Source: Okeania sp.
GTDB lineage: Bacteria > Cyanobacteriota > Cyanobacteriia > Cyanobacteriales > Microcoleaceae
Reading direction: 5' to 3'
NCBI RefSeq assembly: GCF_035285525.1
Contig: NZ_JAYKGW010000140.1
Location: 22,565 to 54,564, forward strand
Length of the DNA stretch: 32,000 bases
A program made the position numbers and the translations under genes. Below, piece by piece: positions 3,905-32,000 of this stretch. Under the pieces are notes generated by a model that did no database searches, had not been told where the DNA came from, and saw only the letters and a program-made list of their open reading frames with translations. Within the stretch, counting starts at the first letter, position 1; the number at the start of each line of letters is the position of its first letter.

Positions 3905-4394
3905 AATCTGATAATTGGTTAAGTTAGGAAATATAATTTTAGCATAAATTGAATTAAAAAAGGGAGTAGAGAGTATTTAAGGACATTCCATGGAACCTCC
4001 TTACTCTGTAAGGATAAGCAGGAAGTTATATAGGAAGTAGTTGAAAAAATAGTTCCTTAATTTTTCTGTCCTAGTTAACCTAAAATACTAAAATTCCTGA
4101 ACCTGAGCAGGCTAAAAATTTCCACTTTTTCAGCTACTAGAAAGACTGAAACTTTTTTGTATCAATACTTTTATATTTATTTAGCAGAGCAATATTTATG
4201 ATTGCTATATAATTGAGAAATTAACAATGAAAAATTGATAATTAATAATTACCCATTCTTAAAAGAAGGAGATTAACTAAAAGGAAAATTTTTTTATTTA
4301 TCCCCTAGGATAGGGGAGGCTTCCAGGGGTGAATTGTTGAATGAATAATTATTGACTATAAATTCTTGATTATTAATTGTTTGGTAAATGATTC

Positions 4395-5039
4395 TTACTT
4401 CTTCCTTCTTCCTTCTTCCTTACTTTTCCATACCCAACCATTAATAGTAAAGCGACTATCTGCAAAATTTTTAGAAGGGCAATTTATTGGTAAAACTTCA
4501 TGCCAATAACGACTAAGAAAGAATACAATAGTGTTATTTTTTACTGCAATCTTTTTAAATGAGTTAGCCTGTTGATAGAGATTATTATTTATTTTTTCAT
4601 CATATAAAACTAATTCTCCCCCAGAAAATTGTTTGGGTTGTTGATAAAAATAATAAACGTAGGTAATTTCTCTTTGAGCAACATTTGGTGTTCCATTATC
4701 ATCATGTGCATGATAATAATTACCATGATTATGAGCTGTTACTTGTGCTTCTATTTTAGCGATAGGAAATTTTTGACGAGCGAGTTTAGCTAAAACTTGA
4801 GGTAAAACTAATTTAATTCGATTACTAATTCTAGCTTTAGAAATAGGTGCTAAATATAATACTTTTGATTTGCGAATATTGGTGTCAGTCAAGCCTGAGC
4901 TAGTGGTACTTTTTTCAAAATAAGGTTCTAGTTTAATTGCAGATTCGAGAATTTTTTGATTTTCTGTCTGAGTTAAAAAATTCTCAATTTTTACACATTT
5001 TGATGGCAGCAGATTTTGATTATATTTGTTTCTAAACAT
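4395..5039 (-). CDS. 2OG-Fe(II) oxygenase superfamily protein (prolyl-hydroxylase/Tpa1-like), short paralog
   Basis: Candidate HxD...H facial triad (HAHDDNG ... RYWHEVLP) and a 2OG-binding Arg context (SRFTINGW). The C-terminal 200 aa align closely with the neighbouring ORF 5389..6306. The last residues (KEEGRRKK) are encoded by a CTTCTTC-type heptamer repeat. Confidence 0.7.
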   Translation of the reverse strand: MFRNKYNQNLLPSKCVKIENFLTQTENQKILESAIKLEPYFEKSTTSSGLTDTNIRKSKVLYLAPISKARISNRIKLVLPQVLAKLARQKFPIAKIEAQVTAHNHGNYYHAHDDNGTPNVAQREITYVYYFYQQPKQFSGGELVLYDEKINNNLYQQANSFKKIAVKNNTIVFFLSRYWHEVLPINCPSKNFADSRFTINGWVWKSKEEGRRKK

Positions 5040-5388: not shown

Positions 5389-6306
5389 TTAATTATTTCT
5401 CCGTATCCAACCATTAATAGTAAAGCGACTATCTGCAAAAGCTTGAGAAGGACAAGTTACTGGCAAAACTTCGTGCATATAACGACTGAGAAAAAATATA
5501 ATACTATTATTGATAGGTTCTATAGTTTTAAATGTTTCAGCTTTAACATAATGTTTTCCTTTAATTTTACTATCATAAATTATTAATTCGCCTCCGGTAA
5601 ATGCTTTAGGTTCTCGATAGAAATAGTAAACATAAGTCAGAGTTCTCGTAGCAGTATCAGGAGAACCATTATCATTATGAATTTTATAGAAATTATTATC
5701 GTTATGAGCTGTTAACTGACTTTCAATTTCAGCAATTGTAAATGGAGAAATATTTAATTGTTTTAAGACATCAGGAAAGATTTCTGCAATTTTTTTGATT
5801 ATTAATTCTCGAAATTTTGGGAAATAATGCAATACTAAAGAACGACGATAATTTTCAGCTTTAGTTGATGTTGTAGTTGGCACAAAATCTGATTTACTTT
5901 GTAAAATATAGTCTAATAATTGTTGATTTTCTGATTTGGTGAAGAAATTTTCTATCTGTAAATAACGAGATTCTAAATTATCTTTTGTAGGAGTATAAGT
6001 TTTAATATTAGATATACTTTCTTGTGGTTGTAAATTCTGCAAATAAATTGGTGGTTCAGTTACCATTCCGACTAAATTTTCACTAGGAAAACATAAAGCA
6101 GCATGACCTTCTGCTAGAGGAATTTGAAATAGGGTAGAATTTTCAGTTTTTTGATGTTTAGATAATAATGTTTTAGCTAAAAGTTGGAGTAAGGGTGCAT
6201 CAGATTTGAGATAAATAGTATATTGATGTCCTCCCATTAATAATAGTTGAATTTTTATTTCTTGTGCTATATTTTGTGGTGATGTAGCTGTCATAATTTT
6301 TGCCAA
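5389..6306 (-). CDS. 2OG-Fe(II) oxygenase superfamily protein, long paralog with an N-terminal extension of about 100 aa
   Basis: KIHNDNG ... RYMHEVLP ... SRFTINGW. LTYVYYFYREPKAFTGGELIIYD here parallels ITYVYYFYQQPKQFSGGELVLYD in the downstream paralog. Confidence 0.7.
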   Translation of the reverse strand: MAKIMTATSPQNIAQEIKIQLLLMGGHQYTIYLKSDAPLLQLLAKTLLSKHQKTENSTLFQIPLAEGHAALCFPSENLVGMVTEPPIYLQNLQPQESISNIKTYTPTKDNLESRYLQIENFFTKSENQQLLDYILQSKSDFVPTTTSTKAENYRRSLVLHYFPKFRELIIKKIAEIFPDVLKQLNISPFTIAEIESQLTAHNDNNFYKIHNDNGSPDTATRTLTYVYYFYREPKAFTGGELIIYDSKIKGKHYVKAETFKTIEPINNSIIFFLSRYMHEVLPVTCPSQAFADSRFTINGWIRRNN

Positions 6307-6584: not shown

Positions 6585-6735
6585 TAAAATGGTGCAGATC
6601 AAACCCGACCCTACTAGACCGTTTGATCTAAAATGGTGCATTAGGGAGTAGGGGAGTAGGGAAGTAGGGGAGTAGGGGAGTAGGGGAGTAGGGGAGAAAC
6701 ATTTTTGTAACCTACAGCTATTGCACCATTTAAGG
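6585..6735. repeat. Composite repeat: AAAATGGTGCA arms, an 8-bp hairpin and an internal octamer tandem repeat
   Basis: TAAAATGGTGCA occurs at 6585 and again at about 6629, with the inverted copy TGCACCATTTAAGG at 6722-6735. GATCAAAC...GTTTGATC forms a hairpin. The (GGGGAGTA)n tract spans about 6643-6696. Confidence 0.7.
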
Positions 6736-7195: not shown

Positions 7196-7303
7196 GGAAT
7201 AGGGAATAGTACAATATCAAAAGGTTCAGGATTTAAAAATGTCCGCGCCCTTTGCTTCAACTGCTATATTAATTATTAATTCTTGAAAACATGACCAAGA
7301 AAT

Positions 7304-7462
7304 AAGCTCTCAAGCTTCCCCTTGACTGCGCTACGAGCTGTCGCTCTACAAGGGGATGAAAAAAATTGATTCAGTATTTCAAGCTTCCTACTTCAGGAGG
7401 AGGTGCTGATAACTAATAACTGATAACTGATAACTGATAACTGATAACTGATAACTGAAATG
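7304..7462 (+). repeat. Composite 'two-hairpin + (CTGATAA)n' element, copy 1
   Basis: Hairpin 1 is CCCCTTG(7318)...CAAGGGG(7355), followed by ATGAAAAAAATTGATTCAGTATTTCAAGC. Hairpin 2 is TCCTAC-TTCA-GGAGGA. Seven CTGATAA/CTAATAA units (7406-7454) end in CTGAAATG, whose ATG is the amidase start codon at 7460. Confidence 0.85.
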
Positions 7463-8863
7463 ACTATCAACCTCAACCAAATAGACGCAGTAGCGATCGC
7501 CACTGCCATTAAAACTGGAAAAACTACCGCTGAAAATGTAACCAAAAAATGTCTCGAACAAATTTACCAGCGCAACCAAACTCTAAACTGTTTCACCGCC
7601 ATCACCAGAGAAAGCGCACTCAATAGCGCCAAACAAATAGATCAAGATATTGCTCAAGGCAAAACCCCCGGCATTCTAGCAGGAGTTCCTTTTGCCGTCA
7701 AAAATCTCTACGACATTGCAGGTATAACCACCCTCGCTGGAGCCAAAATAAATGCCGAAAACCGACCCGCTACCCAAGATGCAACCGCCGTTGCTAAACT
7801 CAAACAAGCAGGTGCTATCCTAGTTGGCGCTCTAAATATGGACGAATACGCCTACGGTTTCGTCACCGAAAATAGTCACTATGGTGCCACACCCAACCCC
7901 CATGACCTCACCCGCATCTCTGGGGGTTCCTCCGGTGGTTCCGCTGCTGCCGTTGCTGCGGGTTTAGTCCCCATTACTCTCGGTTCCGACACCAACGGTT
8001 CCATCCGCGTACCTGCTTCTCTGTGTGGTGTCTTCGGGTTCAAACCAACTTATGGACGCTTATCACGAGCAGGAGTATTTCTGTTTGCCAGTAGTTTAGA
8101 TCATGTTGGATCTTTTGCTCGTTCTGTGCAAGATATTACCACAGTTTATGATATTTTGCAAGGGTCAGATGCTAGAGACCCAGTTTGTACTAACCGCCCT
8201 CCTGAAAGTTGTTTGCCTCAACTAAACCAAGGTATTGCAGGTTTGCGCATTGCTGTCGCTGACGGTCACTTTGCCAAAGGTGGAGAACCAGAAGTGTTCG
8301 CAGCAGTGGAACAGGTAGCAGAAACATTGGGTGTGACTCAGCGGGTGACAATACCAGAAGCACATCGAGGGCGAGCTGCTGCTTATATTATTACTGGTGC
8401 TGAGGGGGCAAATTTGCATTTAGATAATTTACGCACCCGTCCCCAAGATTTTGATCCAGCAACTCGCGATCGCTTTTTGGCAGGTGCTTTAATACCGGGA
8501 GACTGGTATATTCAAGCTCAACGTTTCCGTCGTTGGTATCAAGGTTGCGTTGAGGAAATATTTAAGGAGGTAGATATTATTTTGGCTCCTACTACTCCTT
8601 GTGTTGCACCATTATTGGGGCAGGAAAAAATGACGATTGCTGGAGAAGAAATGTTAGTGCGTCCGCATTTGGGTTTGTATACGCAACCCTTGTCTTTTAT
8701 TGGGTTGCCAGTTTTGTCGGTTCCGGTTCGTCGTACTAATGGTTTGCCTTTAGGAGTACAAATTATTGCTGCACCTTATAATGAAGCGTTAATTTTGCGA
8801 GTGGCAGCATTTTTGGAGCAAAACTCTCAAATATTGGATGTTGCTGAATTAAACGATGAATAG
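7460..8863 (+). CDS. Amidase-signature family amidohydrolase, AtzE-like
   Basis: 467 aa with the amidase signature GGSSGGSAAAVAAGLVPITLGSDTNGSIRVPA and Ser-cisSer-Lys context. The gene pairs with an upstream AtzG-like ORF. GC content is visibly higher than in its neighbours. Confidence 0.85.
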   Translation: MTINLNQIDAVAIATAIKTGKTTAENVTKKCLEQIYQRNQTLNCFTAITRESALNSAKQIDQDIAQGKTPGILAGVPFAVKNLYDIAGITTLAGAKINAENRPATQDATAVAKLKQAGAILVGALNMDEYAYGFVTENSHYGATPNPHDLTRISGGSSGGSAAAVAAGLVPITLGSDTNGSIRVPASLCGVFGFKPTYGRLSRAGVFLFASSLDHVGSFARSVQDITTVYDILQGSDARDPVCTNRPPESCLPQLNQGIAGLRIAVADGHFAKGGEPEVFAAVEQVAETLGVTQRVTIPEAHRGRAAAYIITGAEGANLHLDNLRTRPQDFDPATRDRFLAGALIPGDWYIQAQRFRRWYQGCVEEIFKEVDIILAPTTPCVAPLLGQEKMTIAGEEMLVRPHLGLYTQPLSFIGLPVLSVPVRRTNGLPLGVQIIAAPYNEALILRVAAFLEQNSQILDVAELNDE

Positions 8864-14626: not shown

Positions 14627-14804
14627 TACAGCGGATTCCACCAGGCGTAAGGTACACCCATAGGAGCTAGAAAGCTCGCACTGGTAATATTTATGTAATT
14701 ATTAATATTTGTACTTCATCTAGTTGGAATTTGCTGTATCTCTGGTGAATAAAACAGGAGGCAAATTCTCCTGTTTATAGTAATTTTCACTTAGATAGAC
14801 CAAA

Positions 14805-14832
14805 GTAGGGACGTTCCATGGAACGTCCCTAC
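14805..14832. repeat. Perfect 28-bp palindrome GTAGGGACGTTCCATGGAACGTCCCTAC
   Basis: Read directly from the sequence. It lies between convergent genes that end at 14626 and 14874. A related half-copy (GCAACGTCTCTAC) follows at about 14843. Confidence 0.8.
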
Positions 14833-16562: not shown

Positions 16563-16583
16563 TTATCAGTTATCAGTTATCAG
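16563..16583 (-). repeat. (CTGATAA)3 heptamer tract, sense with gene 14874..16508, about 55 nt upstream of its start
   Basis: The + strand reads TTATCAGTTATCAGTTATCAG. Confidence 0.85.
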
Positions 16584-16906: not shown

Positions 16907-17096
16907 ACTGACACACCTAAAAATCTAGTTTGGAATGTAGGTTGGGTTGAGGGACGAAACCCAACAAAACCTTAATATTTTTGGCTTTCATCCCATGCTG
17001 CGCAACGCTGACGGGTTTCCTGACGGAATACTCCACAAACAAACATATCGCGGAGTGCGAAACAACCCAACCTACGCTTATTGCACTAGCTCTCTT
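16907..17096 (-). mobile_element. MITE-like element, second family (ACTGACA-ACCTAAAAAT ... AACCCAACCTACGCTTATTGCAC)
   Basis: Its ends and the internal GTTGGGTT..GGGACGAAACCCAAC core match the element at 23570-23695 in inverted orientation. Confidence 0.65.
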
Positions 17097-19317: not shown

Positions 19318-19364
19318 TTCCTGTTCCCTGTTCCCTGTTCCCTGTTCCCTATTCCCTATTCCCT
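19318..19364. repeat. Heptamer tandem repeat (CCCTGTT/CCCTATT)n
   Basis: TTCCTGTTCCCTGTTCCCTGTTCCCTGTTCCCTATTCCCTATTCCCT lies in the divergent FAAL/MEKHLA spacer. The same tract type occurs at 22541-22578. Confidence 0.9.
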
Positions 19365-22413: not shown

Positions 22414-22451
22414 GTAGGGACGTTCGCATTTTTGTTATGCAACGTCCCTAC
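22414..22451. repeat. GTAGGGACGTT...AACGTCCCTAC hairpin repeat
   Basis: GTAGGGACGTTCGCATTTTTGTTATGCAACGTCCCTAC belongs to the same family as the palindrome at 14805. Confidence 0.8.
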
Positions 22452-22582
22452 TCTGGTTTACCGAAATGAAAACCGCTGTAGAACATTTCTAAATCCTGTT
22501 TGCGGAGCATTTCCCTATAGGAAAAATCCTTTGATAATCTCCTGTTCCCTGTTCCCTATTCCCTATTCCCTATTCCCTAGCA

Positions 22583-23446: not shown

Positions 23447-23569
23447 AATATTGTTACTAGACTGAAACAGTTAATTTTCTGGGTAAGTTTCATAAATGAA
23501 GACCTCTCCCCCAACTCCTCTCCTGCTTTTGAGAGAGGCGAAGTCTTCTCCCCTTTCCCTTGTAGGGAA

Positions 23570-23695
23570 GTGCAATAAGCGTAGGTTGGGTTGTTCCCGT
23601 TAGGGTTGCGCAGCAAGGGACGAAACCCAACATTAGTAAAGTTCTGTTGGGTTTTACTTCGTTTAACAAGGGCCTACATTTTTAGGTATGTCAGT
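23570..23695 (+). mobile_element. MITE-like element, second family
   Basis: GTGCAATAAGCGTAGGTTGGGTTG ... GGGACGAAACCCAAC ... ATTTTTAGGTATGTCAGT. It ends 3 nt before the leuB stop codon. Confidence 0.65.
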
Positions 23696-25453: not shown

Positions 25454-25497
25454 AAACTTGATCTAATAGCTGAATGTTTACTTATAACATCAGGCTC

Positions 25498-26067
25498 CAT
25501 TAATTAATTACAATACATCAAGATAGAATAGATAATTTAGTCATATGAAAGATAATTTCATCTCTGAGTCAATGATGAAAATCCTGAACAGATTTCTGAT
25601 AACATTAGACGGCATTAATTAATCACAATACATCAAGATAGAATAGATAATTTAGTCGTATGAAATATAACTTCATCTCTGAGTCAATGATGAAAATCCT
25701 GAACAGATTTCTGATAACATTAGACGGCATTAATTAATCACAATACATCAAGATAGAATAGATAATTTAGTCGTATGAAAGATAACTTCAGCTATGAGTC
25801 AATGATGAAAATCCTGAACAGATTTCTGATAACATTAGACGGCATTAATTAATCACAATACATCAAGATAGAATAGATAATTTATTCATATGAAAGATAA
25901 GTTAAGCTCTGAGTCAATGATGAAAATCCTGAACAGATTTCTGATAACATTAGACGGCATTAATTAATCACAATACATCAAGATAGAATAGATAATTTAG
26001 TCGTATGAAATATAACTTCAGCTATGAGTCAATGATGAAAATCCTTGGCGGTATTTGTCATCCGCTT
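25498..26067 (+). repeat. Tandem array of five 115-bp units; the last unit is truncated and fused to the flanking element
   Basis: Units start at 25498, 25613, 25728, 25843 and 25958. Unit consensus: CATTAATTAATCACAATACATCAAGATAGAATAGATAATTTAGTCGTATGAAAGATAACTTCAGCTATGAGTCAATGATGAAAATCCTGAACAGATTTCTGATAACATTAGACGG. Confidence 0.95.
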
Positions 26068-26232: not shown

Positions 26233-26253
26233 CTAATAACTGATAACTGAAAC
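26233..26253 (+). repeat. CTAATAA-CTGATAA-CTGAAAC heptamer tract
   Basis: Read directly. It lies between the array and the stop codon of the convergent ABC gene. Confidence 0.8.
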
Positions 26254-28013: not shown

Positions 28014-28447
28014 AGAAGTAATATTGAGATGTTTAATAATGCTATAACTGTAGATAGTTAAATATAGAAAAAATTGATATTTGATTCAACAAAAATTCTC
28101 TGAATTTTTGCTTAAACCAATTTGTACCAAGTACATGTATCACTACTAAATAATCTTGTCTGAGATTAAACTCAAAATATTACTGCTGGACTAACACAGT
28201 TAATTGTGTAGATTAGGGCGATTATTTAGTCTTGCGTTTGAGCATTAAAATTTTCACTAAAATCTGTCCCTACTATTACATAATTTTAAGTTTGTTAGTC
28301 TAGTACAATCTTTTAATATAACATTTTTCATGTTACAGAAGTAAAGTTGTTTTGTTGGTTTTTTATCGAATAATTAATAACTATTAATTGCTGAATCCCC
28401 TACTCCCTAAAACCAAGGAATTTTTTACCGAAAATTTGGGGTATGTG

Positions 28448-28532
28448 TTTCCCCTTTCAAGGGTATGAAAAAAATCAATTCAGTATTTAAAAGCTACGAG
28501 ATACTAATAACTGATAACTGATAACTAAAATG
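28448..28532 (+). repeat. Composite 'two-hairpin + (CTGATAA)n' element, copy 2 (degenerate)
   Basis: TTTCCCCTTTCAAGGGTATGAAAAAAATCAATTCAGTATTTAAAAGC...CTAATAACTGATAACTGATAACTAAAATG. The terminal ATG is the start of ORF 28530. Confidence 0.7.
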
Positions 28533-30446: not shown

Positions 30447-30556
30447 AATTTTTTGGATTTTTGTCTTGAGAAAATAGTAATTTTTGGTTTACTAAATATA
30501 AGCATTCAGCACTCAGCTATCAGTTATCAGCTAATAGCTTCATTACCAAAAAAAAA

Positions 30557-30670
30557 GAGGTATAAAGCCTCCCCTTGTTCGGGGATGAAAAAAATAAATT
30601 TCATTGTTTCAAGCCTCTAGCTGAACCCAGAGGTACTGATAACTGATAACTGATAACTGATAACTGAAAT
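30557..30670 (+). repeat. Composite 'two-hairpin + (CTGATAA)n' element, copy 3
   Basis: GAGGTATAAAGCCTCCCCTTGTTCGGGGATGAAAAAAATAAATTTCATTGTTTCAAGCCTCTAGCTGAACCCAGAGGTA(CTGATAA)4CTGAAAT. Confidence 0.85.
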
Positions 30671-30935
30671 TACCTTTGATTGATAACTAGAGCTAGTCGC
30701 TATTGTGCTTCAATTCTCTGGTTAAAAATATAGTAGTATAGTAGAAGTTAAGCAAATGTTTACTTTATTAATTAAAAAGCTAATAGCTAATAGCTGTTTG
30801 CGCAGTATTCCCTAGGAAATACTTACTACTAAACTAACTGGGTTGATATAATATTGCCCCTAAATTAAAAATAAAAATCAACTGCTTTTAGCGAAACTTC
30901 AGTTAATAATTAGTTGCTTCTGTTACCAAAAAAAT

Positions 30936-31058
30936 AGGTATAAATCCTCCCCTTGTTCGGGGATGAAAAAATTTTAACTCAGTATTTCAAGCCTCTGACT
31001 AAATTCGGAGGTTTACTCTCTACTGATAACTAATAACTAATAACTGATAACTGAAATG
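30936..31058 (+). repeat. Composite 'two-hairpin + (CTGATAA)n' element, copy 4
   Basis: AGGTATAAATCCTCCCCTTGTTCGGGGATGAAAAAATTTTAACTCAGTATTTCAAGCCTCTGACTAAATTCGGAGG...CTGATAACTAATAACTAATAACTGATAACTGAAATG. Confidence 0.85.
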
Positions 31059-31124
31059 ACTGCTTGGATTACTTTAACATGACCATAACGTATATTATCA
31101 TTCACAATTACAATTAAAGTCCAA

Positions 31125-31326
31125 TATATAGCAATCCTATTTGATTCGTTTATAAAATTTCATTCCTTTTAGGGAGTAGTGGTGCGACCCCGCGTAGGTG
31201 AAAATTGCAAGTGGTCAGACCCCTTGCCAGCCTTCCCTGGCGCTGGCCAAGAGAGAAAACAGGTGGGAGTTTCAGTTTATTATTTACTTTATTAATTTGT
31301 CACAACCTATTTAGGATTGCTATATA
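31125..31326. repeat. Inverted-repeat-bounded element of about 200 bp with a GC-rich core
   Basis: TATATAGCAATCCTA at 31125-31139 is the exact reverse complement of TAGGATTGCTATATA at 31312-31326. The core at about 31175-31270 is markedly GC-rich in a very AT-rich region. Confidence 0.6.
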
Positions 31327-31542
31327 GTTAGGTGTTTTATACCCTAACCCTAAATCACAAGTTCATACTGTAATTAAAACACAGATATTTTTGATGACAC
31401 GCCCTAGAAATAAAAAACAATAATTTTCAACTATACCAGGGCTTAGGCAGCGACCCTAGATATAGTGCTTTTAACCCCATGCGCAATAGTTTTTTAACTC
31501 TATATCATAGTACTTTTGTGTAAGTCCTGTATACTTTGTATT

Positions 31543-31642
31543 AGGAGTTACGCAGAAACCGGGTTTATCAACGAAATTTTGTGGTTTGAACAACAATATC
31601 ACGGCAATAAACCGGGTTGATTGGTTGTTTTGCGCAAGCCCT
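31543..31642. mobile_element. MITE-like element (AGGAGTTACGCA...TGCGCAAGCCCT), related to 6883-6966
   Basis: The interior CAGAAACCGGGTTTATCAACGAAATTTTGTGGTTTGAAC is nearly identical to 6893-6931. A solo end, TGTGTAAGTCCT, lies at 31518-31529. Confidence 0.7.
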
Positions 31643-31659
31643 ATTTATGTGAAGTATGT

Positions 31660-31780
31660 CATTTCAGTTATCAGTTATCAGTACCTCCTACTGAAGTAGG
31701 AAACTTCAAATAAATCAATTTTTTTTTCATCCCCTTGTAGAGCGACAGCTCGTGGCGCAGCCAAGGGGAGGCTTGAGACC
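31660..31780 (-). repeat. Composite 'two-hairpin + (CTGATAA)n' element, copy 5 (inverted)
   Basis: The reverse complement reads GGTCTCAAGCCTCCCCTTGGCTGCGCCACGAGCTGTCGCTCTACAAGGGGATGAAAAAAAAATTGATTTATTTGAAGTTTCCTACTTCAGTAGGAGGTACTGATAACTGATAACTGAAATG. It belongs to the same long-loop subfamily as copy 1. Confidence 0.85.
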
Positions 31781-32000
31781 TTATTTATTCGTCAAAATAC
31801 TCATTCATTCTTTATTGACTTTTAAACTTTATTGTGTTATAGAGAAAATTTTTTAATATTGTAGTGTATTAATAAAACTTATAAATAAATTAAAGAATAA
31901 ATTACTTAACACCCCTTTACAAATAGAAATAAACTAGCTAAAGTAATATTAACGGTCAAGGAAAAAAAACCGAAGACCGCCGTACCTCGAAAATTTCATA

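Follow-up and report, generated by a model that had tools for sequence, protein, structure and literature searches.

A family of miniature elements in Okeania and Trichodesmium with IS608-like ends and a built-in heptamer array

The insertion sequence (IS) IS608 inserts 3' of TTAC with no DNA gained or lost, the TTAC lying 5' of the left hairpin, 19 nt from its foot. Its left guide, AAAG, comprises the four bases 5' of that foot, and its right cleavage site, TCAA, is internal and pairs with a guide, GAAT, located 5' of the right hairpin (PMC3201880, PMC5934647); within this code T-4 pairs with A+17 (PMC5934647). Palindrome-associated transposable elements (PATEs) are defined by IS605-type ends, near-terminal palindromes, the lack of both inverted terminal repeats and target duplications, and a length too short for a transposase (PMC3119063). 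Cyanobacteria are rich in Y1 transposases of the IS200/IS605 subclass (PMC6006769). Here we describe a repeat, termed family A, of which five copies are present in a 32,000-nt stretch of Okeania sp. DNA (the window) and which consists of a first hairpin, an A-run, a second hairpin, an array of CTGATAA heptamers and the terminus CTGAAATGAC. Family A is, with high probability, a non-autonomous transposable element that descends from, or is mobilised in the manner of, an IS608-type member of the IS200/IS605 insertion sequences. PATE is the best-fitting published class, and all four of its defining features were found in family A. As in the PATEs of Haloquadratum walsbyi, which are often hit by or nested with other small repeats (PMC3119063), family-A copies occur in nested arrangements; they differ in having a cyanobacterial rather than a haloarchaeal host, in the microsatellite built into the right end, and in having sister families that possess one left-end module in common and differ in their right ends and arrays.

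The five copies, at ~7.3, 28.4, 30.5, 30.9 kb and 31.7 kb (the last on the minus strand), were read directly in the window and show the order of modules given in the original prediction, the coordinates of which were about right except that the true 5' ends lie 10–30 nt further out and the 3' ends two bases further on. The anchor pattern GGGGATGAAAAAAN{30,60}CTRATAACT, whose only fixed parts are the hairpin-1 3' arm, the A-run and the first heptamer, has five matches in the window (copies 1, 3, 4 and 5, two matches overlapping in copy 5) against 0.00 expected (100 shuffles). Allowing up to two mismatches to GGGGATGAAAAAA gave eight window sites against 1.95 expected, among them the degenerate copy 2, already detected with one mismatch allowed, and a hairpin-1-like relic at 4293-4305(-). 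An independent repeat search also connects the window copies (repeats D11, D14, D19, I1 and I4), I1 being a 74-nt arm with 92% identity between copies 1 and 5.

Scanning one genome per species with the anchor pattern yielded at least 123 further copies in at least 116 loci (given L numbers below) from Trichodesmium, Okeania, Dapis and Microcoleaceae metagenome-assembled genomes (MAGs), with one Calothrix MAG as the sole outlier among the loci listed. The consensus of 123 copies reads TTAC directly followed by CAAAAAATGAGGTCTAAAG CCTCCCCTTTTAAGGGG ATGAAAAAATATTCAGTTCAGTATTTCAAG CCTCCGACTTTAGTCGGAGG T(TC)A (CTGATAA)n CTGAAATGAC. Boundaries refined from 110 aligned copies and from empty sites place the start of the element at C(A/G)AAAAAT, directly 3' of a flanking T(T/G)AC, and its end at CTGAAATGAC. 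These boundaries are sharp, as information content jumps at the junction of T(T/G)AC and CAAAAAAT and is zero right after CTGAAATGAC (consensus of 110 and 96 copies), and in the same consensus no terminal inverted repeats were found, the ends CAAAAAATGAGG... and ...CTGATAACTGAAATGAC not being complementary. Elements are 125–170 nt long and their longest internal open reading frames (ORFs) span ~20–30 codons. The CTGATAA array is located between the right hairpin and the right cleavage site and comprises 1–18 units, mostly 3–4 and never 0.

A profile of the left module detected 243 sites in the DNA searched, 110 of which have no family-A right half and represent sister families built on the same plan. 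Family B combines the left module with an A-rich spacer, a CCTCTTC..GGAGAGG hairpin and an array of the type (TAATTAT)n, and terminates in ...TTGTTGAA; other sister families have CAATTAT or CCATTAT arrays and end in ...ATTGAA. Each sister family has its own unit at the array position (CTGATAA, TAATTAT, or CAATTAT/CCATTAT). No description of family A was found in the literature on Trichodesmium transposable elements of the miniature inverted-repeat kind (MITEs), CTGATAA, small dispersed or heptameric repeats or IS200/IS605, and the Trichodesmium primary-transcriptome paper does not mention it. The family is new, and unusual in its built-in microsatellite, in left ends shared modularly with sister families, and in a terminus able to regenerate ATGAC starts.

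The geometry of family A closely follows that of IS608. As in IS608, the TTAC target is kept in the left flank, and T(T/G)AC is separated from the foot of hairpin 1 (CCTCC) by a spacer of 19 nt (56 copies) or 20 nt (33 copies). The four bases at the end of this spacer, where the left guide lies, are AAAG in 46 copies and CAAG in 7. The same pairing code applies, in which position 1 of the site pairs with position 2 of the guide, 2 with 1, 4 with 4, and 3 with 3 as A.A, and the right cleavage site likewise lies within the element, 3' of a second hairpin with a guide of its own. Family A differs from IS608 in lacking tnpA and tnpB and in having the right cleavage site TGAC with the guide CAAG (39/44) instead of TCAA with GAAT. 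A variable heptamer array precedes its right cleavage site, its two hairpins are dissimilar, and some of its subfamilies are off code.

Changes in the cleavage sites are accompanied by matching changes in the guides at three kinds of ends. Left-end variants flanked by TGAC carry CAAG; across left ends the pair is T/A in 43 copies, G/C in 5 and discordant in 6 (Fisher p = 0.0007, uncorrected for shared ancestry). In the window, copies 1 and 5 combine TGAC with CAAG and copy 3 combines TTAC with AAAG. At the right ends of families B and C the guide CAAT (43/44) accompanies TGAA, and homology stops right after this TGAA. In our view, these covarying Watson–Crick changes between guides and cleavage sites 20 to 70 nt apart are the strongest single argument for an IS608-type mechanism. 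Family A is a clean natural example of the IS608 guide/cleavage code at work outside Helicobacter, with naturally "retargeted" variants (AAAG/TTAC, CAAG/TGAC and CAAT/TGAA).

This specificity also bears on the possibility that family A is one of the very small dispersed repeats of cyanobacteria, spreading by some other mechanism and resembling IS608 by coincidence. Very small dispersed repeats were reportedly described in Nostoc by Elhai et al. in 2008, and in their favour small blocks are nested in hairpin loops and heptamer arrays of family A (L004, L086, L099, L109) and the family is associated with heptamer tandem arrays. However, TTAC, the 19–20 nt spacing, AAAG and guide/cleavage covariation at three kinds of ends are too specific for chance, and we regard this explanation as very unlikely.

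Comparison of occupied and empty sites, which the original prediction had proposed as an indicator of mobility, revealed precise insertion at two orthologous empty sites and three classes of paralogous ones. Excising copy 4 (30927-31060) restores collinearity with the Trichodesmium locus L118 (TTCTGTTAC/TGCTTGGATTAC versus TTCTGTCAC/TATTTAGATTAC, with the slash marking the junction), and copy 1 corresponds to empty sites in the amidase orthologs L123, L125 and L126. In the first paralogous class, family-A copies of at least two subtypes lie within reverse-oriented family-B elements, exactly between ...ATTAC and CTCTCC; this site is filled in L026, L034, L057 and L106, and empty in L006, L030, L071, L028, L088, L082 and L080. 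The second class comprises L004 (filled) versus L010, L033 and L100 (empty). The third is situated in another repeat family, with L104 filled versus L055, L094, L041 and L014 empty. The compared sites show no target duplication, and the empty ones carry T(T/C/G)AC. Across 80 copies, the 5' flank is TTAC in 51 and TGAC in 14, and the 3' end of the element is TGAC in 69. Family A has been mobile on the time scale of the divergence between Okeania and Trichodesmium.

The strand on which the modules were read in the original prediction is the active "top" strand. We posit the following mechanism. A Y1 (HUH) transposase TnpA, supplied in trans, would bind both hairpins in single-stranded DNA (ssDNA), the guides pairing with the cleavage sites by the IS608 code. 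The left cut in the top strand would fall after TTAC or TGAC and the right cut after TGAC, and the excised strand would form a circle able to re-insert 3' of another TTAC or TGAC in ssDNA with no duplication. Recognition of their shape by the transposase would account for the conservation of the hairpins and for their compensatory changes, and the heptamer array would represent slippage-prone spacer DNA. That the ATGAAAAAAA block and the stop-rich tail are leftovers of a deleted transposase gene is speculation.

Several observations weigh against an IS608-type origin. Neither a Y1 transposase gene nor a full-length parent with matching ends was found in the window or in ~0.9 Mb of loci, where all ORFs of at least 50 aa were searched by motif and by phmmer with an approximate IS200 TnpA sequence as the query. 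TnpB-type ORFs occur in multiple copies in the loci and were considered as parents, but in the single case inspected (L036) the left end is not that of family A. CGCG, TGCG, TGTG or TGCA occupies the guide position in 24 of the 91 left ends flanked by T(T/G)AC, breaking the pairing code, and in an abundant subfamily of the MAG JAXHSW hairpin 2 (CCGGC..GTCGG) follows TTCT or TGAT instead of CAAG; this subfamily has clearly multiplied despite the missing guide. Because of the heptamer array the right hairpin lies ~20–70 nt from the cleavage site, compared with 10 nt in IS608, and the two hairpins are alike only in their CCTCC start, whereas those of IS608 are near-identical. No local strand bias of the elements was seen in the 8-kb loci taken from draft contigs. 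The set of copies is itself biased by a search pattern in which GGGG, the A-run and the first heptamer are fixed. Finally, the AC dinucleotide is ambiguous at the junctions, such that a 2-bp duplication would fit every pair of empty and filled sites as well.

This ambiguity is what a classical MITE, moved by a DDE transposase acting on short terminal inverted repeats with a 2-bp (AC) or 4-bp duplication, would exploit, and family A is indeed small, abundant, intergenic and clustered in the manner of MITEs. Such an origin is nevertheless extremely improbable. Terminal inverted repeats are absent (CAAAAAATGAGG... versus ...CTGAAATGAC); of 80 copies, only 16 have the same 4-mer in the flank and at the terminus and 64 have different ones, the 3' TGAC being invariant as expected of an element end; and the IS608-type spacing and guide code would be left as an unexplained coincidence. 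The Nezha MITE of Anabaena and Nostoc, said to have been described by Zhou et al. in 2008, reportedly has terminal inverted repeats and direct-repeat target duplications. Family A resembles Nezha as a small, non-coding, multi-copy mobile element of cyanobacteria, but has neither of these features.

The Y1 chemistry postulated here would also be compatible with an element maintained by its host, akin to repetitive extragenic palindromes (REPs) and the composite bacterial interspersed mosaic elements (BIMEs) and REP doublets forming hairpins (REPINs), through a single-copy domesticated Y1 enzyme (REP-associated tyrosine transposase, RAYT, or TnpA-REP). These systems share with family A abundant intergenic hairpin repeats, a conserved tetranucleotide 5' of the hairpin and presumed handling of ssDNA by a Y1 HUH enzyme, and the Y1-type features cited above count in favour of this reading as well. 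Several TnpA-REP subclasses occur in Cyanobacteria (PMC6006769), no IS-borne tnpA was seen among the loci searched, and copies are intergenic and very numerous. REPs, however, have a 5' GT[AG]G, a single type of palindrome and usually an arrangement and movement as inverted pairs (PMC6006769), as opposed to AAAG and CAAG, asymmetric ends and a defined target in family A, where two different hairpins in direct order reproduce the left/right layout of an insertion sequence. We therefore consider a REP-like origin unlikely, and favour mobilisation of the IS608 type.

In the course of searching for a parent element, left ends 1.2–1.7 kb apart were inspected as candidate full-length insertion sequences and rejected, as the pairs bracket ordinary genes. 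In L036, a solitary family-A tail AACTGATAACTGAAATGAC at 3992-4016 is followed directly by a TnpB-encoding IS, which suggests that other IS605-type elements can use the terminal TGAC of family A as their target.

Both hairpins fold on the same strand (hairpin 1 as CCTCCCC..GGGG and hairpin 2 as CCTCCGAC..GTCGGAGG), and the consensus folded as single-stranded DNA has a z-score of -4.66. In this fold the first array units pair with a conserved TTCAGTTCAGTA block, and by this model the right end may be a longer imperfect palindrome. Hairpin 1 is mostly conserved in sequence, its 5' arm being CCCC in 65 of ~110 short-loop copies (GGGG is fixed by the search pattern). The two loop forms that had been noted for it are real, the long form carrying CTGCGCC(A/G)CGAGCT..CGCTCTAC; this 24-nt block occurs solely inside hairpin 1 (12 of 12 occurrences).

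The proposal that hairpin 2 keeps its pairing while its sequence changes was borne out in an alignment of 122 copies, although the hairpin of copy 1 is imperfect. In a fixed register 72.9% of the cells are paired versus 69.5% in shuffles, and the covariation score of 0.215 (0.178 in shuffles) was matched by one of 500 shuffles; controls in which the partner was moved by 1–3 columns had at most 52% pairing and scores of at most 0.118. These shuffle statistics ignore shared ancestry, and one large subfamily is in a shifted register. For these reasons each of the 92 distinct hairpin-2 variants was folded separately, giving a mean z-score of -2.5 with 59 of 92 below -1.5. Compensatory stems include CCTCCGAC/GTCGGAGG, CCTCCGGC/GCCGGAGG, CCTCTGG/CCAGAGG and CCTAC/GTAGG as well as CAGAC/GTCTG, CCGGCAA/TTGTCGG, CCGAC/GTCGG, CCGGC/GCCGG and CTGG/CCAG. 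The supposed constancy of (G/A)GAGG in the 3' arm did not hold, as one large subfamily has GTCGG.

The original prediction had attributed this pattern to selection on structure in RNA or ssDNA. Structure and ssDNA are supported, but an RNA or cis-regulatory role is not: precise insertions, IS608 geometry, random orientation and the absence of an Rfam match all point to ssDNA and a mobile element. It had also held that random orientation together with a lack of covariation would indicate an ordinary decaying MITE; orientation is random and covariation is present. Most likely the element is a miniature transposon and its hairpins are nevertheless working parts of the transposition machinery.

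Relative to the downstream ORF, 51 copies are on the same strand and 57 on the opposite strand (47 versus 44 for the upstream ORF), and none of the 123 listed copies lies within an ORF of at least 120 aa. The median distance to a co-oriented downstream ORF is 289 nt. The terminal ATG of copy 1 (7460-7462) is the start codon of an AtzE-family amidase ORF (7460-8863). All amidase ortholog proteins begin with MTIN, and the empty sites in L123, L125 and L126 read ...aaaaacATGACTATCAA (in longer context ...ttaattattaattctcaaaaacATGACTATCAA), compared with ...ttaattattaattcttgaaaacATGAC, the 169-nt element ending in ...CTGAAATGAC, and TATCAACC in the window. Copy 1 therefore landed in the ATGAC at which the amidase gene began, and the element's own terminal ATGAC rebuilt the start codon. 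The original ATGAC (7291-7295) is now located 169 nt upstream as left flank and the reading frame is intact; the native upstream region of the amidase gene, along with any ribosome-binding signal, has therefore been displaced.

These data argue against family A being a cis-acting RNA, in which hairpin 2 of a 5' untranslated region (UTR) would hide a Shine–Dalgarno (SD)-like GGAGG, CTGATAA would stop upstream translation and the terminal ATG would start a gene. The 3' arm of hairpin 2 is usually (G/A)GAGG, CTGATAA repeats provide stop codons in all three frames, the amidase starts at the terminal ATG of copy 1, and 8 of 51 co-oriented downstream ORFs, as called, start within 5 nt of the element end. 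Set against this are the random orientation and the distances to co-oriented ORFs given above, the large subfamily lacking GGAGG, the lack of any Rfam match and the lack of conservation of short ORFs from the internal ATG. The amidase start is explained by insertion into a pre-existing ATGAC, and the eight near ORF starts are expected from ORF calling right after a stop-rich array. A riboregulator is thus largely refuted and highly improbable. The SD-like GGAGG and the terminal ATG do not make up a translation signal that is conserved, the ATG starting a real gene only upon insertion into ATGAC. The ATGAC terminus could re-create start codons at insertion, as at the amidase.

Other candidate functions were examined. 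A small peptide translated from the internal ATGAAAAAA was rejected, since frames and stop positions are not conserved between copies. An intrinsic terminator was also rejected, with only the left end of copy 3 (minus strand) fitting the pattern (one site versus 0.9 expected). Rfam 15 at the gathering threshold gave no matches in the whole window, and a scan of the window for tRNA and tmRNA found none. Elements of this kind carry a risk for annotation, as they are mistakable for regulatory RNA motifs, terminators or 5' UTR structures, and the stop-rich array followed by a terminal ATG misleads ORF start calling. The elements also break short-read assemblies, with the amidase contig L117 ending inside the array.

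Copy 1 (7296-7464, plus strand) is a 169-nt member of the long-loop subfamily. Its target TGAC (7292-7295), which belonged to the ATGAC where the amidase gene first started, now forms the left flank and is followed by a 19-nt leader with the guide CAAG at its end (7311-7314), hairpin 1 (7315-7355) and a ATGAAAAAAA spacer. A second guide CAAG (7380-7383) precedes hairpin 2 (7384-7403), seven CTGATAA-type units (7406-7454) and the terminus CTGAAATGAC (7455-7464). Copy 2 (28428-28531, plus strand; target TTAC 28424-28427) is degenerate, with TGTG in the guide position, a weakened hairpin 1 (CCCCTTTCAAGGGT), no hairpin 2, three remaining heptamer units and the terminus CTAAAATGCA. The Trichodesmium ortholog lacks ~340 nt at this position.

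The other three copies are clustered in the last part of the window, where no ORF longer than 55 codons is found from 30447 to the window end, which places them in an extended intergenic stretch upstream of a DUF218/YdcF gene; the protein encoded by this gene shares 100% identity with a protein of "Okeania sp." and 86% with its Trichodesmium ortholog. Exact-sequence look-ups of the DUF218 protein, P0001 and P0002 gave no record, and that of the amidase gave only a contig broken inside the array. Copy 3 (30547-30673, plus strand; target TTAC 30543-30546) is of the short-loop form, with a 21-nt leader ending in AAAG (30564-30567), hairpin 1 (30568-30584), the guide CAAG (30610-30613), hairpin 2 (30614-30633), four CTGATAA units (30636-30663) and the terminus CTGAAATTAC, in which the right cleavage site is mutated to TTAC. 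It is missing from the Trichodesmium ortholog, where divergence blurs the junction; as a result of the divergence of intergenic DNA, exact junctions against Trichodesmium are not definable for copies 2 and 3. Copy 4 (30927-31060, plus strand; target TTAC 30923-30926), also short-loop and 134 nt long, comprises a 19-nt leader ending in AAAT, hairpin 1 (30946-30962), the guide CAAG (30988-30991), hairpin 2 (30992-31011), heptamer units (31023-31050) and the terminus CTGAAATGAC (31051-31060). Copy 5 (31658-31790, minus strand; repeats I1 and I4) belongs to the long-loop subfamily, its target TGAC being the reverse complement of 31791-31794. Its 19-nt leader ends in CAAG; next come hairpin 1, whose loop contains the 24-nt block, then hairpin 2 with the arms TTTCCTAC/GTAGGAGG, and finally a pair of CTGATAA units ahead of the terminal CTGAAATGAC.

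The window also contains remains of related elements. A decayed sister-family copy of the B/C type (4215-4330, minus strand; repeat I21) retains a hairpin-1-like GCCTCCCCTATCCTAGGGGA, an A-rich spacer and an array of the TAATTAT type; its second hairpin is decayed and it terminates in ...TTGTTAA. A solitary CTAATAACTGATAACTGAAAC tail without hairpins at 26233-26253 (plus strand) may be a right-end remnant, and a solitary (CTGATAA)3 array at 16563-16583 (minus strand) has no hairpins beside it.

Heptamer arrays are not confined to these elements, as ~40 different heptamer or octamer arrays are present in intergenic DNA of the window (for example CCTGTTC x6.4 at 19320, CCTATTC x5.6 at 22541 and GGGAGTAG x6.6 at 6644), and several of its short tandem arrays belong to other repeat families. 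Short tandemly repeated repetitive (STRR) heptamers of filamentous cyanobacteria were reportedly described by Mazel et al. in 1990, in heterocystous strains and with other units. We know of no mechanism for STRR repeats, which to our knowledge have been unexplained since 1990. The intergenic DNA of the window resembles them in having 7-nt tandem arrays with many different units; the family-A array differs in its fixed place within a mobile element, where it separates the right hairpin from the right cleavage site. We tentatively raise the idea, itself doubtful, that STRR-type arrays in this clade were born as the spacer between right hairpin and right cleavage site of IS200/IS605-type miniature elements, with solitary arrays as remains of such elements. 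Were this true, ssDNA transposon ends would rank among the main builders of the non-coding DNA that makes up an unusually large fraction of Trichodesmium-type genomes. The T. erythraeum genome is only ~60% coding (PMC4143802). Family A and its sister families account for part of the non-coding space in Trichodesmium and its relatives.

Intergenic regions are dense mosaics of miniature elements, which nest inside each other and form clusters with spacings of a few hundred bases or less. A family of small perfect palindromes, GTAGGGACGTTCCATGGAACGTCCCTAC, is represented at 14801-14831, 3978-4008 and 22437-22472 of the window and in 14 loci, one such palindrome being nested within the CTGATAA array of a family-A element in L109. 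Further blocks of 25–60 nt are nested in heptamer arrays (L004, L086, L099) or after hairpin 1 (L035, L038, L078, L114, L074), examples being TTCCTCCGATAGGAGGCTAA and GCGGT(C/T)G..GGATGG..CCATATCCAATC. Their positions suggest that they are additional tiny mobile modules targeting these elements. The repeat family represented at 31120-31340, bounded by ATATAGCAATCC... and ...GGATTGCTATAT, is present in 17 loci; its halves are adjacent elsewhere and are split here by a GC-rich insert of ~80 nt (GGTGCGACCCCGCGTAGG...). Family-A insertions into repeats of this type are located between ...AAACT(C/T)TAC and CTGTTCC.

Further repeats are present in the window. At 25484-26045, between isopropylmalate/isocitrate dehydrogenase and ABC transporter genes, a 115-nt unit is tandemly repeated 4.9 times (95% matches); nothing matching it occurs in the 116 loci, and the syntenic Trichodesmium L118 lacks a counterpart. 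An inverted repeat pair at 16957-17087 and 23569-23654, 6.5 kb apart, has 59 nt at 83% and 27 nt at 100% complementarity, with short matches in L046 and L060. Two neighbouring 2OG-Fe(II) oxygenase genes at 4395-5039 and 5389-6306 are paralogous, with 300 nt in common at 71% identity, 973 nt apart.

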